A stretch of DNA of 64,000 bases from Clostridia bacterium (GTDB taxonomy: Bacteria > Bacillota > Clostridia > Christensenellales > CAG-1252): contig JAFSWQ010000008.1 in NCBI GenBank assembly GCA_017444385.1, positions 71,685 through 135,684 of the forward strand. Direction: 5' to 3'. A program made the translations under genes and the position numbers. A model generated the notes under the pieces. The model was not told where the DNA came from. It searched no databases and was given only the letters and a program-made list of their open reading frames with translations. Of the stretch, positions 17,415 through 23,190 are shown in pieces; position 1 is the stretch's first letter; each line of letters opens with the position of its first letter.

Positions 17415-19010
17415 TTAGTGCAAATGATATTTTTTCGTAGAATAGAGAATACCGTAAACGCAAACGTAGAAGGGAATATTCGCCAATAATACGGCGGGAT
17501 AGAATATGGGAACTATCATTGAATTTACGTTATCGACGGTCACGTTCAGCGAGGGTATAAAGAACCCTAAAAGCATAATAACGACCATCAAATTCAAGTA
17601 GACCATTATCGCCGTCGCAAGACTTATACGGAAATTATAGTCGGTCTTTTTGCGTTTAAACCTAAAGAAAAGGTACTTTTGAATAAAGAAGAAAGGTATC
17701 ACCAAAGCGATAAGGGCGATAACCAAATAGAATATAAGACCTTTTTCTACCGTTTTGTCAAAGAAGAAATAACCGAGTAAGACCTCTAAAAGTATCATCG
17801 CAAACGTGATAATAGAGCAGTCCTTGTTGATTCTATTTACGAAATAGAAGTTGTCAGCATAGTAGGAATATGCGTTTTGGTTGACGTAAGGCTTTACTAA
17901 AATGCCCTTTTTAGCCATTTGAGTCTTTAATTCGGCATAAGAAGAAACGCTAATAAAGTGATCTTGCTCGGGCTCTTCTTCAATAGCCTCTGAAGGTCTA
18001 TCGGGTAGAATCTCTTTCAAAATGTTTTCGTACCCGTACTTGTTGAAAATATCCATTTGGGCAAGATAGGTCTTGAATTCGCCGTAAGCGGTGCCGGTTT
18101 CGGTAACTCTTACCGCGGTTGCGAGTTTTTCTTGCTCTTCAAGCGTGACTTTGGAAGCCTCGTTTTCGCTCTTTACGGGCTCTACGACTGGGTCTTCCTT
18201 AGGTGTTTCGGCGGGCTTTTCGTCGAACATTCCAAGCGCGTCCATCGCTTCGAGTTCTCTGCGAGCTTTTTCTGCGTCGTAGACGTAAGTAGGGCGGGGG
18301 ATATACTCTTGTTTTTCCTCAACATTTATATTTTCTTCGGTTTTGACCGTATTAAAAGAATTCTTTTCAGTGCTTACAGCCTCAGGACTTTCGACGTTAT
18401 CGGTTACTTCAACGGGGGTTGATTCTTGTAATTTATCCTCTTTTTCAAGGCTTTCAACGACGTTTGAATTATCTTCTTCAACTTCTTGTTTTTTCTTATC
18501 TTTAGCCGCTTTTTGCGCTTTCTCTCTTTGTTTCTTTTCCTTTTTGGTCTCTACGCGGATAAGAGGTTCTTCCCGTAATTCTTTTATTTCCTCTTTCAAA
18601 GGCGCTTCGACGGGTGCTGCTTTAACGACTTCGTCCATAAGGATAATACCGTAGCGGTCGCCCGATTTTACGAGAGAGCAGCCCTCGGCTTTTGACGCGT
18701 CGTCTAAGACTACTACGCCGTAATTTGCCGATAATTGATAAGCGGTGTAATTTACGAGAGAGAAGATAGGGGTGTCCGCATACTCTAAAATAGAATACTT
18801 TCCGTCCTCTTCCGAATAGGCGATTGCGCCTTCCTTTACCATACCGTCTAATAGGTATTGCAAAGATCCATCCGCCAAATAATAATCGTCCGAGATTATA
18901 ACGAAAGAAGCCTCGATACCGTCAATATCGGACGGCTCGTTGGCGAGTTTATTAAGAACAAAACTTTGACATTGTTCAAGCAAGTAGGGCTTCGTTATAT
19001 TCGTACTCAT
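17415..19010 (-). CDS. Hypothetical membrane protein: soluble N-terminal domain, Lys/Glu-rich linker, C-terminal multi-TM region
   Basis: 531 aa. Low-complexity KEKKQREKAQKAAKDKKKQEVEE segment. About 5 predicted TM helices in the last ~150 aa. Confidence 0.6.
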   Translation of the reverse strand: MSTNITKPYLLEQCQSFVLNKLANEPSDIDGIEASFVIISDDYYLADGSLQYLLDGMVKEGAIAYSEEDGKYSILEYADTPIFSLVNYTAYQLSANYGVVVLDDASKAEGCSLVKSGDRYGIILMDEVVKAAPVEAPLKEEIKELREEPLIRVETKKEKKQREKAQKAAKDKKKQEVEEDNSNVVESLEKEDKLQESTPVEVTDNVESPEAVSTEKNSFNTVKTEENINVEEKQEYIPRPTYVYDAEKARRELEAMDALGMFDEKPAETPKEDPVVEPVKSENEASKVTLEEQEKLATAVRVTETGTAYGEFKTYLAQMDIFNKYGYENILKEILPDRPSEAIEEEPEQDHFISVSSYAELKTQMAKKGILVKPYVNQNAYSYYADNFYFVNRINKDCSIITFAMILLEVLLGYFFFDKTVEKGLIFYLVIALIALVIPFFFIQKYLFFRFKRKKTDYNFRISLATAIMVYLNLMVVIMLLGFFIPSLNVTVDNVNSMIVPIFYPAVLLANIPFYVCVYGILYSTKKYHLH

Positions 19011-19176: not shown

Positions 19177-19392
19177 CTATTGTTTCTTACTCTTACGATA
19201 TTCGTCGTAGGTTAATACTTTGTCTATGATTATGCCGGCGTAGTCGACTTCGCCGTCGAGTCCTATACATTTCATACAGTTATCGCAAACTTTGGTCGAG
19301 TCGAATTCGCAAAGGTCGCAATAACCGCAATTATCGCAAATATTTTCTTCAACTATTACGCAATGCTTTACGCCGTCGTCTTTTTTAGCCAT
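19177..19392 (-). CDS. Cys-rich mini-protein (71 aa, 10 Cys), translationally coupled to the recombinase
   Basis: CDNCGYCDLCEFDSTKVCDNCMKC pattern. Its start overlaps the recombinase stop by 8 nt. Confidence 0.55.
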   Translation of the reverse strand: MAKKDDGVKHCVIVEENICDNCGYCDLCEFDSTKVCDNCMKCIGLDGEVDYAGIIIDKVLTYDEYRKSKKQ

Positions 19393-20440
19393 CTTCTTCG
19401 TCTTCCTTTTTCCTTATTTTTACCACGCCGGCAGCCTGTCTTTTTATATCTTCGTCTATAGCGGCGTAGTGCCTTTTTGTCGTTTCAATGCTCGTATGCC
19501 CGAGAACCTCCGCAACGACGTATATATCTTTGGTTTCTCTGTATAGATTCGTACCGAACGTTGAACGCAGTTTATGCGGCGTTATATGCTTTAATGGGGT
19601 AGCGATTTCCGCATACTTTTTTACCATAATTTCCACCGTTCTCACGCCTATTCTTTTATTTTGCATAGAGAGGAATAGAGCGGTGGTTTCTACCTCTAAA
19701 GAGCGGCGATATTCCATATACTCTTCCATGATCTCGATAACTTCTTCGGGCAGGTAGAGAATGGTACGATTACCGCCTTTCCTCGTTACTCTAAACGAGC
19801 CGGCGGCGAGATCCACGTCCTCGATATTCAACCCGACGCATTCGGATACGCGAATACCAGTGCCGAGCATTAAGGTAAGCAGCGCGACGTCGCGGATTTT
19901 GGTTTTTTCGTGGTATTTTTGCGCTCTCGATGAGAGTTCTTCGCCGCCTTCAACTACGTCGAGAAAATCGGTCATCTCCTCGCCCTCTAACCTTATTATC
20001 TCTTTCGAATGCTTTTTAGGCATATCGACTTTGGTGGAAACGTTTTCTCTTAGCAGGTTTTTATTATATAAATAGGCGAAAAGCCGCCTTAATGAAGCAA
20101 GTTTCCTCGATTTACCTTCCGCGCCGTTATTTCTCGTAATGCCGTTTTCATCGACGTAAGAGGTAAGATAATCTAAATAATTCTCAATATCCGTTTGAGT
20201 AACCGCGTTTAATTGATCTATGGTAAAGTCCTCGATGGACGTATTTTTGAATTTTCTCACTTCGTTAGTTAAATAATTGAAGAATACCAAATAATCACGG
20301 CCGTAATTCAATCGCGTAAGCGGAGAAGTAATATTGGACATCGCAACGAAGAACTGCGAACAAAATTCGGGCAGCCGATCGCGTAGTTCTTTAATTTGTT
20401 TTATTATCTTTTCGTCGCGTTCTTGAGAATAATTCTTCAT
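19385..20440 (-). CDS. Tyrosine site-specific recombinase (XerC/XerD/integrase family)
   Basis: 351 aa. N-terminal SAM-like domain. Catalytic pattern GTGIRVSE (Arg), HKLRSTF (His-x-x-Arg), LGHTSIETTKRHY (His...Tyr). Confidence 0.85.
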   Translation of the reverse strand: MKNYSQERDEKIIKQIKELRDRLPEFCSQFFVAMSNITSPLTRLNYGRDYLVFFNYLTNEVRKFKNTSIEDFTIDQLNAVTQTDIENYLDYLTSYVDENGITRNNGAEGKSRKLASLRRLFAYLYNKNLLRENVSTKVDMPKKHSKEIIRLEGEEMTDFLDVVEGGEELSSRAQKYHEKTKIRDVALLTLMLGTGIRVSECVGLNIEDVDLAAGSFRVTRKGGNRTILYLPEEVIEIMEEYMEYRRSLEVETTALFLSMQNKRIGVRTVEIMVKKYAEIATPLKHITPHKLRSTFGTNLYRETKDIYVVAEVLGHTSIETTKRHYAAIDEDIKRQAAGVVKIRKKEDEEDG

Positions 20441-20507
20441 ATGATAAGTATAAATAAAAAAAAGCGAAAAGTAAATACTTTTCGCAAAAATTCAAATAGT
20501 AAATAAC

Positions 20508-20714
20508 TTATTTTTCGTTAACGCCGAGAAGCTCGTCGGACGATACTTCAAGTACCTTGCAAATACGAATAATAAAATCAATACTGGGCTCGTTGCGACC
20601 TTGCTCCCAGTGAGCATAACAGCTTTCGGTCACTCCTATGAAATCCGCCATTTGTCTTTGAGTATAATTCCTTCGTTTGCGGGTAATAACTAAGTTAAAT
20701 CTAAAACTATTCAT
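20508..20714 (-). CDS. Small XRE-family HTH DNA-binding protein (68 aa)
   Basis: RKRRNYTQRQMADFIGVTESCYAHWEQGRNEPS HTH_3 pattern. First gene of the XRE-recombinase-Cys-rich unit. Confidence 0.8.
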   Translation of the reverse strand: MNSFRFNLVITRKRRNYTQRQMADFIGVTESCYAHWEQGRNEPSIDFIIRICKVLEVSSDELLGVNEK

Positions 20715-20792
20715 TTGTCACCTCAAAAAATATTGTATCATATGTGAAAGAAAATTACAAGTGATATTGTAAAATAAAATCAAAAAAAATGT

Positions 20793-20815
20793 TTATTATG
20801 TACTGTACATAATAA
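20793..20815. promoter_or_regulatory. Perfect 23-bp palindrome TTATTATGTACTGTACATAATAA upstream of the XRE gene (candidate operator)
   Basis: 11-bp arms are exact reverse complements around a central T at 20804. The core equals the TACTGTA heptamer of the neighbouring repeat arrays. Confidence 0.6.
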
Positions 20816-20888
20816 TATAGAAAAATAGTAGTTTTTCAGTCAAGAGACGTTTGATAATACATTAGAAGGGCTCAGCGTATAAAAAGCG

Positions 20889-21249
20889 TACAGTATATAA
20901 CATACAGGATATAAAATACAGGATTATATATACAGTAGGTTATATACAGTATGTATTATACAGTATATATTATACAGTAACTGCACGATTTATAAAATGT
21001 ATATAGAGTACAGTACATATTATACACTACATATTACACAGTACATAGAATACAGTATATTGTATACAGTACATAAAATACACCATATATACATAGCGTA
21101 CAGTATAGATTATACACTACAATATGTACAGTGTATATACAAATAGTACAGGGTGTTATGTACAGTACATATTATACAGTAAATATACATAATATACAGT
21201 AGTATATATACAGTACATATCGTATATACAATATACGTTTTGTACAGAT
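20889..21249 (+). repeat. 14-bp-periodic TACWGTA repeat block 1 (almost all TACAGTA)
   Basis: Cores at 20889, 20903, 20917, 20931, 20945, 20959 and 20973 are exactly 14 bp apart. Later cores at 21009, 21023, 21037, 21051, 21065, 21079, 21099, 21113, 21127, 21147, 21161, 21175, 21195, 21209 and 21243 are spaced 14, 20 or 34 bp. Confidence 0.9.
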
Positions 21250-21398
21250 AGTGTTAGATTTTTCGTAAATCATAATATTAAACGGGATTTATTAAGGTTT
21301 GAGATAATCATAAAGAGGATTAAGTAGAGAAGACCACGGTTTAGAGGGAGATCGCGTATAAAAGCGGCGCGGTTATTAAAAACCCGTAGAGAAGGGTA

Positions 21399-21432
21399 TC
21401 TATACAAAACGTACATATCGTTAAAATTTTAA
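21399..21432 (+). repeat. 34-bp direct repeat, copy 1 (TCTATACAAAACGTACATATCGTTAAAATTTTAA)
   Basis: Identical 34-mer recurs at 22410-22443. Weaker similarity continues ~45 nt downstream (GGGGTCGAAATTTA vs GGGGACAAATTTA). Confidence 0.85.
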
Positions 21433-21548
21433 GACGATTATTTAATTATTGGGGGTCGAAATTTAATAAAATCAACACGTTATTTTCATATAAATCGAAT
21501 AGAGCAGCCATCTACCTTCGCTATACAGATATAAAAAATATTATTGTG

Positions 21549-21701
21549 TACATTATGTACAGTGTATGTACATAGCGTACAGTATAATTTATACGGTATA
21601 TAATGTACATATTATATACGTTTAGTACAGTACATAATATACTGATATACGTACGATATATACAGTACAATATGTACATATACTGTACGTTTTGTACAGT
21701 A
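21549..21701 (+). repeat. 14-bp-periodic TACWGTA repeat block 2 (mostly TACAGTA)
   Basis: Exact TACAGTA at 21578, 21626, 21661 and 21695; TACTGTA at 21681; many one-mismatch cores (TACATAT, TACGGTA, TACAGTG). Confidence 0.85.
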
Positions 21702-22120
21702 TATAACATTGAAAATTTTAATTTACCAGTATCCGCAAATAAAATACAATTCATATAAGCGTTAAAAAGTATTAAGATCGTATGAATCGACGGCATATTA
21801 ATAATAATGACTAATATATTATATCAAATACGGCTGGCTTAATACAATTCTATTTCTTTTATCCCGGATATCGAGCAATACTTCAAAGTATATCGTTATC
21901 CTTTATAACTCATGTATTGTTTTTACGTAGATAGCAATTAAGAATACGGCTTTGATTATAAACTATCGCGACAAAATGCGGCAAGCTCTAAACCATAAAC
22001 CAATCTTTGCTTCTAAAAGTCCTACGGTCACGCGGGTTTTTTGCTTTCATTCAGGATCATATCACGCCAATTTGAAAATACGCCTAAAATGTCGTTTATA
22101 TATTACATATTAGCCACTAA

Positions 22121-22150
22121 CTATTCGCAAAAGTATGCTTTTGCGAATAG
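22121..22150. other. Perfect 13-bp-stem hairpin CTATTCGCAAAAG-TATG-CTTTTGCGAATAG in the unique core of the ORF-free region
   Basis: The arms are exact reverse complements. No long U tract on either strand. Confidence 0.7.
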
Positions 22151-22409
22151 TTTACAAAAATATCATCACATTGGCAACACGATCGCAAGCTACCGGATTT
22201 ACAAATATTCTTAAAAATTGATTGATATCCGCTCTGCCCTGCGTTCGTATATTTACCAGCAGTAAATTCAAGCAATGATTCTTATAGATAATTTGGCGTA
22301 AAAATAACGAAAAATCACTAAACAAGATGAGAACTTCACGTATTGATTTATATCTTTAATAGTTTATCTTTCCGACCGCCATATTAATAAAAACCTCAAT
22401 TAAACTACC

Positions 22410-22443
22410 TCTATACAAAACGTACATATCGTTAAAATTTTAA
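22410..22443 (+). repeat. 34-bp direct repeat, copy 2
   Basis: Identical to 21399-21432, 1011 bp downstream. Confidence 0.85.
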
Positions 22444-22541
22444 AGCAAATTTATAATCTAACGGGGACAAATTTAGCGATTATTATCAATATTTCGCAAC
22501 GATAAGAAGGATCATTTCTACGATTGTATGATATGTATAGT

Positions 22542-22776
22542 TACTGTACAAACTGTACACAAGATTATATTATGAGTTAAAATGGGATAGATAACTCTGA
22601 ACTCATAATAGATTTCCCGATACACCACACTTCTCTATCCGAATTCCTAATAAAGAACTAAATGTATATAATGTACTGTATTTTATATACTGTACTTTTC
22701 GTATATTTCCTGTACATATTATACTGTATTATTTGTATATATTATATACGTTTTATACTGTATTATATAAACTGTA
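22542..22776 (-). repeat. 14-bp-periodic TACWGTA repeat block 3 (TACTGTA orientation), interrupted at 22561-22660
   Basis: TACTGTA at 22542, 22674, 22688, 22722 and 22756. Near-cores at 22552, 22708 and 22770. Spacings 14, 20 or 34 bp. Confidence 0.85.
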
Positions 22777-22858
22777 CATATCATACATAGTAACGACGCT
22801 TGATAGATATTGTAATGCTGAACTATTTGAACGCAATATTTGAAAAATACTTTGCTCA

Positions 22859-23136
22859 TTCTGTACATAAAGTACTGTATAATATAGCCTGTACTTTTTG
22901 TATTGTAAGCGCCCTTCTCTATCTTTCTTTAAATCACTCTGCTATCTATCATTACATAGATAACGATGTACGTTATGTATATTTATTGTATAGAATGTAC
23001 AGTATATAACGTACTGTATAATTTATATGTAATATATACATATTGTACTGTACATATACTACTATACAGTATATACTATACACTATATACTGTATAGTAC
23101 ATACTGTATATTACATACTGTACTTTATGTACTGTA
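22859..23136 (-). repeat. 14-bp-periodic TACWGTA repeat blocks 4-5 (mostly TACTGTA)
   Basis: Cores at 22859, 22873 and 22887, then TACTGTA at 23012, 23046, 23088, 23102, 23116 and 23130. Two TACAGTA at 22998 and 23065. Confidence 0.85.
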
Positions 23137-23190
23137 CTTTTTTATATGCATATTATATACTTAAATTTCTTACTTTATTACTTGCAGATT

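Follow-up and report, generated by a model that had tools for sequence, protein, structure and literature searches.

What is the role of a perfect 23-bp palindrome that stands beside a small regulator gene, at the edge of a repeat-filled and gene-free region, in an uncultured gut bacterium of the class Clostridia? The question is raised by contig JAFSWQ010000008.1 of the Clostridia bacterium assembly GCA_017444385.1 (order Christensenellales), of which a stretch of 64,000 nucleotides, referred to below as the window, was analysed. The regulator is a helix-turn-helix (HTH) protein of 68 amino acids (aa) belonging to the XRE type, and the palindrome lies upstream of its gene. The palindrome appears to be the gene-proximal member of a field of around 45 dyads built on the half-site GTAYA/TRTAC, and the most likely binder of this field would be the neighbouring XRE protein, acting as dimers. 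The field is probably not an ordinary regulon, as it brackets a probable dif site at the replication terminus, on which the XerS-like recombinase encoded next to it would act. We give a probability of about 0.6 to the reading in which XRE dimers bind pairs of half-sites, feed back on the xre gene and coat the DNA around dif.

The palindrome and its field of half-sites

The two elements from which the question starts are the following.

20508-20714, minus strand: gene of the 68-aa Cro/C1-type (XRE) HTH protein, phage-repressor-like, Pfam HTH_3
20793-20815, no strand: perfect 23-bp palindrome, half-sites TGTAC / GTACA, 1 bp apart, with symmetric AT-rich flanks

The sequence of the palindrome, TTATTATGTACTGTACATAATAA, reads as TTATTATGTAC-T-GTACATAATAA, with 11-bp arms that are exact reverse complements around the central T. 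This agrees with a preliminary description of the same DNA, which had also set the element about 80 bp upstream of the XRE start; the measured distance from the end of the palindrome to the ATG is 79 bp. It is the array-type site nearest to the XRE gene, and it ranks second in length among the tight palindromes of the window, after a dif-like element at 22119-22152. When sequences are simulated with the composition of the 2.4-kb region itself, a palindrome with an arm of at least 11 bp and a loop of at most 1 bp is found in 1-4% of order-1 to order-3 Markov simulations. The palindrome is real and moderately significant, and becomes less unusual once the repeat motif itself is modelled. Its core word GTACWGTAC is found six times in the window against an expected 0.13, all six within 20800-23137, and the heptamer TACAGTA/TACTGTA 38 times against an expected 4.2, with 33 of these copies in 20801-23136. 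The earlier statement that the motif is iterated dozens of times is thus borne out for the heptamer but not for the longer 13-mer ATGTACWGTACAT, which has two copies, at 20798 and 21158.

The repeats occupy the gap between the XRE gene and a PF06838 gene, which is 2.48 kb long, free of open reading frames and 28% GC. The array elements within it are listed here.

20877-21250, plus strand: left array block 1, 14-bp tiled units (GTAYATAWTRTAC + linker A), TACAGTA on the plus strand
21399-21432, plus strand: 34-bp direct repeat copy 1, with a perfect CTATAC-N5-GTACAT site
21546-21705, plus strand: left array block 2, with TGTACATTATGTACA and CTGTACGTTTTGTACAG
22410-22443, plus strand: 34-bp direct repeat copy 2, with a perfect CTATAC-N5-GTACAT site
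22524-22905, minus strand: right array blocks, TACAGTA on the minus strand
22966-23160, minus strand: right distal array block, related to the left arrays in inverted form (72% complementary over 120 nt)

The 34-bp direct repeats are identical and flank dif in the same orientation, unlike the arrays. In G000, as we term the genome of the window in comparisons with its relatives (G001-G028 among them), the repeats have a period of 14 bp. An alignment of all 33 heptamers reveals a GTA 10 nt upstream and a TAC 14 nt downstream of the heptamer start, both conserved, and the array can also be read as 13-bp near-palindromes, GTAYATAWTRTAC, each followed by one linker base, with TACAGTA as the junction between units. 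With up to two mismatches allowed, this 13-mer has 51 matches in the window, 43 of them in the gap. Across the assembled 0.92 Mb of the genome, all seven perfect 13-mers, 14 of the 23 with one mismatch and 21 of the 30 best sites fall within the 2.4-kb gap, and no second cluster of the motif was found anywhere in the assembled genome.

Three arrangements of the half-sites were counted across seven species. The arrangement TRTAC-N5-GTAYA, which is 15 bp long, or 17 bp as CTRTAC-N5-GTAYAG, is enriched in all seven, with 12, 21, 13, 15, 15, 17 and 3 perfect copies where 0.3-3 would be expected even with one mismatch allowed. The palindrome type, TRTAC-N1-GTAYA, has 12 perfect copies in G000 and 0-5 in the other species, and GTAYA-N3-TRTAC has 15 in G000, nine in G007, five in G005 and 0-2 elsewhere. 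The conserved element therefore appears to be the half-site GTAYA/TRTAC and the conserved geometry N5, which would place the half-sites about one helical turn apart and would suit an HTH dimer. The heptamer TACWGTA was rejected as the functional unit: it is the junction of the 14-bp tiling in G000 and is rare elsewhere (in G004, G007 and G005), whereas the half-site pair is conserved.

The XRE protein matches Pfam HTH_3 at 52.3 bits (E 5.7e-14; gathering cut-off 23). No other family in Pfam or NCBIfam matched above its cut-off, the best NCBIfam family being RstR at 62.7 bits, under a cut-off of 80, and no homology to Tus or RTP was found. The AlphaFold2 model, with a predicted local distance difference test score (pLDDT) of 92, is a compact Cro/C1 domain of five helices, the second and third of which form the HTH. 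A Foldseek search gives this model TM-scores of 0.8-0.87 to P22 c2, SinR, C.BclI and C.AhdI, and ImmR and operator-bound P22 c2 are also among the closest structures. The recognition helix, E-S/G-C-Y-A-H-W-E-Q-G-R (here ESCYAHWEQGR), is invariant among the orthologues, which fits a half-site that is common to the species.

These orthologues, at 58-94% identity, are confined to two genera of the Christensenellaceae, where each lies immediately upstream of the XerS-like gene and reads in the same direction. Arrays lie beside the XRE gene wherever the contig continues upstream (G003-G007 and G015). In G001, G009 and G012 no more than about 220 bp of upstream sequence precedes the gene before the contig breaks off (G001:C152, G009:C19 and G012:C104), as if the arrays break short-read metagenome assemblies, so that absence of XRE or dif from a metagenome-assembled genome is weak evidence. 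In G002 arrays are present and no XRE orthologue was found; its contig starts at dif. Arrays are missing from the relatives that lack XRE, in which dif and xerS are separated by a compact spacer of 110-620 bp; in the six of these that were examined (G010, G011, G013, G026, G027 and G028), no enriched word was found near dif. Co-occurrence, the shared half-site and the invariant helix together support a link between the XRE protein and the arrays. The preliminary description had drawn the same link; it stands, with the half-site GTAYA/TRTAC in place of the heptamer as the shared unit. Within one genus, the orientation of the xre-xerS pair together with the array region varies from species to species: relative to the Cys-rich and PF06838 genes it is reversed in G006 and G003 as compared with G000, G004, G007 and G005, the kind of rearrangement expected around a terminus.

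A probable dif site, its recombinase and the neighbouring genes

The element that the arrays surround, and the features by which it can be interpreted, are set out below.

19385-20440, minus strand: 351-aa XerS-like tyrosine recombinase, NCBIfam XerS over its full length
21326-21332 and 21388-21394, plus strand: AGAGAAG
22119-22152, no strand: probable dif, AACTATTCGCAAAA-GTATGC-TTTTGCGAATAGTT, core 22124-22147, single copy, conserved order-wide
22630-22636 and 22914-22920, minus strand: AGAGAAG

The dif-like palindrome, ACTATTCGCAAAA-N6-TTTTGCGAATAGT, is 34 bp long with 15-bp arms, and is the sole non-repeat element of the gap that is kept in all relatives. The pattern TTCGCAAAA-N4-8-TTTTGCGAA is present in exactly one copy in 16 of 41 genomes of the order, spread over nine genera, and never in two; arms of 13 bp around a centre of 6 bp are seen in 13 genomes. 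With xerS set on the same side, this centre is CTTGTG or GTTGTG in four of six XRE-less genomes, CTTGTC in G011 and GACAAG in G027, the last two being reverse complements of each other. The site lies 60-200 bp upstream of the XerS-like gene in these six (G010, G011, G013, G026, G027 and G028) and 0.8-1.7 kb from it in the XRE-bearing species.

In the complete 2.56-Mb genome G028, the dif-like site is found at 2,270,631 and dnaA at 910,801, 53% of the circle apart. The cumulative GC skew of the 145-kb contig C5 climbs for 90 kb and then descends, with its turn at 18-21 kb of the window, and a 238-kb contig of G005 has the same locus at its GC-skew maximum. These two skew maxima place the replication terminus here, in the 2.4-kb gap. 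Among the 7-mers of the genome, AGAGAAG has the strongest strand skew, 162:13 on the leading strand; on C5 its plus:minus counts are 34:0 to the left of the dif-like palindrome and 0:24 to the right, with the nearest copies at -736 and +506. It is a candidate FtsK/SpoIIIE guide motif, resembling those of B. subtilis and L. lactis. The loci available from the relatives are short and contain too few copies of it for polarity to be judged. Taken together, these observations make it very likely, as judged from sequence, that 22119-22152 is the chromosomal dif.

Several other identities were considered for this locus. An origin of replication was rejected, as the cumulative GC skew is at a maximum rather than a minimum and dnaA lies on the opposite side of the G028 circle. 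An integrative mobile element exploiting Xer (IMEX), with two flanking dif sites, was also rejected: the locus holds one full dif site, even with three mismatches allowed, plus one half-site, and no phage genes. The arrays were rejected as FtsK-orienting or SpoIIIE-recognition sequences (KOPS/SRS), since TACAGTA outside the arrays has no strong genome-wide skew (20:12 on the leading versus the lagging strand). The covariance models of Rfam 15 gave nothing at gathering score, with only chance-level matches at E up to 1.

The recombinase has XerS as its best NCBIfam family, which it matches over its full length at 208 bits. Because this is under the equivalog cut-off of 267, the enzyme is best described as XerS-like and not as XerS proper. 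Its arginine (TGIRVSE), HxxR (PHKLR) and histidine (LGH) motifs can be matched to those of E. coli XerD in an alignment that stops at query residue 326; the tyrosine just beyond it was read from the sequence (...KRHY). The protein has the same length with and without arrays, so it carries no extra arm-binding domain. A recombinase-driven invertible or shufflon switch was set aside, as the recombinase is order-wide, has its own site and is the same length whether or not arrays are present. Among homologues in the Lachnospiraceae, at around 50% identity, no XRE neighbour was found, and in nine of the 14 loci read the gene follows directly after a coding region.

The order of genes in the window is dnaX, ybaB and recR on the plus strand, then genes for a 531-aa membrane protein, a Cys-rich protein, the recombinase and XRE on the minus strand, followed by the gap and, again on the minus strand, the PF06838 gene, miaA and mutL. 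Three further features of this neighbourhood are worth recording.

17415-19010, minus strand: 531-aa protein, soluble in its N-terminal part, then a Lys/Glu-rich linker and membrane helices towards the C terminus
19177-19392, minus strand: 71-aa protein with 10 Cys (CxxCxxCxxC...CxxCxxC), no family match
20456-20485, minus strand: XRE intrinsic terminator, hairpin plus T8 (20464-20485 + T8), overlapping the dif half-site TTTTGCGAA and a candidate xerS promoter

Over 42 nt at the terminator, G000, G004, G007 and G005 are identical, though the flanks of this block differ, and G006, G003 and G001 carry ATCTTTTCGCAAAA at the same position. The candidate xerS promoter lies within 20441-20507 and would be nearly leaderless. 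This terminator and half-site block, 20441-20507, may be an autoregulatory site for XerS or a relic of an ancestral dif position. The Cys-rich protein is found by tblastn in the XRE-bearing genera only, beside xerS, and may belong to the same module as XRE and xerS. The 531-aa protein lies between recR and dif in G004-G007 and G010-G013, from the window's own family, and no match to it was found in loci from three other families (G026-G028).

The promoter, the palindrome and competing explanations

Two promoters bear on the question of whether the palindrome is an operator.

20732-20760, minus strand: XRE promoter P1, TTGTAA-17-TGaTACAAT, with the ribosome-binding site GAGGTG after it; kept in relatives
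20814-20843, minus strand: candidate upstream promoter P2, TTGACT-18-TATATT, predicted from 10 of 12 consensus positions

The position and hexamers of P1 are conserved in seven of the 10 relatives aligned over the upstream region (G000, G001 and G003-G007), and in this alignment no P1-like promoter could be picked out in G009, G012 and G015. Transcription from P2 would start (+1) inside the palindrome. No counterpart of P2 is evident in the upstream sequence of G004, and the other relatives were not systematically searched for one. An operator would be expected to overlap the -35, -10 or +1 of its own promoter; the palindrome has no such overlap with P1 and would have one with the non-conserved candidate P2 only, from which classical repression is possible but unsupported.

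Relatives nevertheless have something at this place. In G004, G007 and G005, a TRTAC-N5-GTAYA site is found 72-88 nt upstream of the ATG; when the sequences are aligned, it falls on the left arm of the palindrome, whose own span is 79-101 nt upstream. The orthologous N5 site of G000 is degraded, TGTTT-ATTAT-GTACT, and the perfect symmetry in this genome arises from a second inner half-site together with the symmetric flanks. In G004 and G007 the first array element after the XRE gene is a ATGTACAGTACAT-type palindrome. It appears, then, that the promoter-proximal slot is conserved and that the N1 palindrome is specific to G000, where its symmetry would be a recent feature laid over the right half of an ancestral TRTAC-N5-GTAYA operator.

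A number of observations weigh against the reading that we favour, and they concern the palindrome, the arrays and the enzyme alike. The palindrome lies 32 bp upstream of the P1 -35, with its centre near -79, and does not overlap P1; its N1 spacing differs from the cross-species N5 and, scored as an N5 site, it carries three mismatches. At the same place the perfect palindrome is absent from G004, whose XRE protein is 94% identical, and order-4 Markov runs with the composition of the 2.4-kb region give a comparable palindrome in 14% of cases. The period of the arrays is 14 bp in G000 versus 20 bp in G004, G007 and G005, with no fixed architecture kept. The joint presence of XRE and arrays probably traces back to one evolutionary event in a single clade, and so is not independent evidence. 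Finally, a second XerC/D-type recombinase of around 300 aa is encoded on contig C9 (107,4xx-108,3xx, minus strand), below both equivalog cut-offs, so that either enzyme might act at dif. The preliminary description had called the palindrome the obvious autoregulatory operator; that wording is too strong, because the element stands upstream of the -35 of the conserved promoter.

The same description regarded the arrays as secondary or titrating sites, and the plainest rival reading follows from it: the palindrome is a classical autoregulatory operator, and the arrays merely titrate the repressor without any tie to chromosome biology. The repressor-like fold of XRE, a P2 start that would fall inside the palindrome and the presence of nearly all strong sites of the genome in one region speak for this model. 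It is at odds with the conserved promoter, which the palindrome leaves free, and with the lack of an evident P2 in G004, the relative checked for it, and it leaves unexplained why a dif-like site that is single-copy, conserved throughout the order and located at the terminus has arrays around it, a context that the description passed over. We regard it as unlikely. It is similarly improbable that the palindrome is a functionless by-product of array evolution, generated by repeat slippage or by template-switch correction of a quasi-palindrome, with the N5 sites alone being bound. The N1 arrangement is enriched in G000 only, where it is an automatic outcome of the 14-bp tiling, the perfect form is not kept in relatives, and 14% of the order-4 simulations yield such a palindrome; set against this, the palindrome fills the promoter-proximal slot of a site conserved in three relatives, and the ATGTACAGTACAT-type palindromes hold the first place after XRE in G004 and G007.

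Opposed arrays invite a reading in terms of direction. XRE and its sites could form a direction-sensitive barrier at the terminus, either a fork trap like RTP-Ter and Tus-Ter or a brake on FtsK/SpoIIIE at dif, with the palindrome being autoregulatory in the manner of IRI for B. subtilis rtp. In G000, TACAGTA is on the plus strand to the left of dif and on the minus strand to the right, and CTRTAYA is distributed 16:3 between the strands on the left and 5:14 on the right. Such a flip at dif is found in four of six species (G000, G004, G007 and G006), the arrays lie exactly at the skew switch, and the gene of the small putative binder adjoins its sites. The polarity deserves limited weight, however, because it consists mostly of one linker base in about four independent blocks (a chance of around 1 in 8), because the leading strand is A-rich, and because the right arrays resemble the left ones in inverted form, so that the mirror layout may be historical; it is also weak in G005 and absent in G003, and XRE is unrelated to Tus or RTP. 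A barrier of this kind seems to us quite unlikely. An origin in phage immunity is considered doubtful to much the same degree: XRE and part of the arrays would be the domesticated or decaying immunity module of a dif-integrated filamentous phage, an IMEX, whose present role, if any, would be immunity. The best NCBIfam family of XRE is, as noted, RstR, the repressor of CTXphi; among its phage homologues, at 40-46% identity, are those of two 7-kb inoviruses with RstB-like, Rep and Zot genes, and the lone dif half-site beside xerS could be a relic junction. The locus, however, lacks phage genes, its gene order has been passed on vertically through two genera, dif has arrays on either side, and neither the operator motif nor the Christensenellales dif sequence was found in the two inoviruses, which carry the nearest repressors.

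We therefore return to the reading in which XRE dimers occupy the half-site pairs. XRE bound at the promoter-proximal site or sites would feed back on its own promoter, and read-through of the weak XRE terminator would perhaps carry this feedback to xerS. The arrays would gather tens of XRE dimers on either side of dif, over about 1 kb each, to form a terminus-specific nucleoprotein domain. Such a coat could act as a termination sensor, an accessory in Xer synapsis, a barrier, an anchor or a form of phage immunity. A further step, which we offer as tentative and think less probable than not by some way, is that a domesticated phage-type repressor and its tiled operators have become a dedicated organiser of dif and the terminus, controlling the timing or manner of Xer recombination, fork convergence or the arrival of FtsK; it might, for example, be a termination sensor, in which the doubling of around 45 sites at the end of replication would titrate XRE and release xerS.

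Known systems and the marking of the terminus

The nearest mechanistic kin of the locus are XerS/difSL and the phage repressor-operator systems, and the nearest functional analogues are MatP/matS and ZapT. As in XerS/difSL of streptococci and lactococci and XerH/difH of Helicobacter and Campylobacter, a single recombinase gene of about 350 aa lies beside its own terminus site (PMC2965235, PMC5357621). A hallmark of both systems is a site just upstream of the recombinase gene, and, like difSL and difH, the dif described here is around 31-32 bp with A-tract half-sites, ATTCGCAAAA compared with TTTCCGAAAA in difSL and GTTATGAAAA in difH (PMC5357621). The locus departs from XerS proper in the score of its recombinase, and from difSL and difH in its repressor-like gene and its arrays of 1-1.4 kb per side, nothing comparable to which has been described for either.

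With the phage Cro/C1 repressors (P22 c2, 434 and lambda) and the controllers of restriction-modification systems (C.AhdI and C.BclI), XRE shares the five-helix HTH fold, dyads of around 15 bp with half-sites one helical turn apart, and a gene beside the sites, the layout expected for autoregulation. It differs in having tens of sites in a 14- or 20-bp tiling versus 2-6 operators, and in that the sites stand upstream of the conserved promoter and not over it, at a chromosomal terminus around dif. In E. coli, around 23 matS sites, likewise 13-bp palindromes, are spread over roughly 800 kb. MatP with matS and ZapT of Caulobacter, which has 10 sites near ter (PMC7188993), are small DNA-binders of the transcription-factor type whose sites mark the terminus. 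The present system has no homology to them and concentrates its approximately 45 sites in 2.4 kb touching dif.

Opposed site polarity on the two sides of the terminus, where it is seen, recalls RTP-Ter of B. subtilis and Tus-Ter of E. coli, and rtp lies next to TerI/TerII, where it is autoregulated. The protein here is unrelated, and the polarity is weak and not universal among relatives. Plasmid Xer sites such as cer and psi, which employ PepA with ArgR or ArcA, likewise have protein-binding DNA beside the Xer core that could shape the synapse, with binding being predicted in the present case. The accessory DNA of cer and psi is around 180 bp, lies on one side only and is bound by host proteins, whereas the arrays here are on both sides, are kilobase-sized and have a dedicated HTH gene of their own.

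To our knowledge, single-recombinase Xer modules have barely been described outside streptococcal XerS and the XerH of Helicobacter and Campylobacter. In the open literature that we searched, there was no description of XerS-like systems in the Christensenellales, of repressor-site arrays around a chromosomal dif, or of the Christensenellales dif palindrome at 22119-22152. The dif of a whole order of uncultured gut Clostridia can be named from its DNA, and two genera surround it with densely packed likely sites for a dedicated small HTH protein. If XRE binds them, the locus would offer a compact and experimentally tractable case of a transcription-factor fold recruited to the replication terminus, and it bears on how Firmicutes without MatP, Tus or RTP mark their terminus and time the resolution of chromosome dimers. 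Should the XRE protein and its tiled operators prove to be a dedicated organiser, they would have no kinship with MatP, ZapT, Tus or RTP and would make up a terminus system of a new kind.

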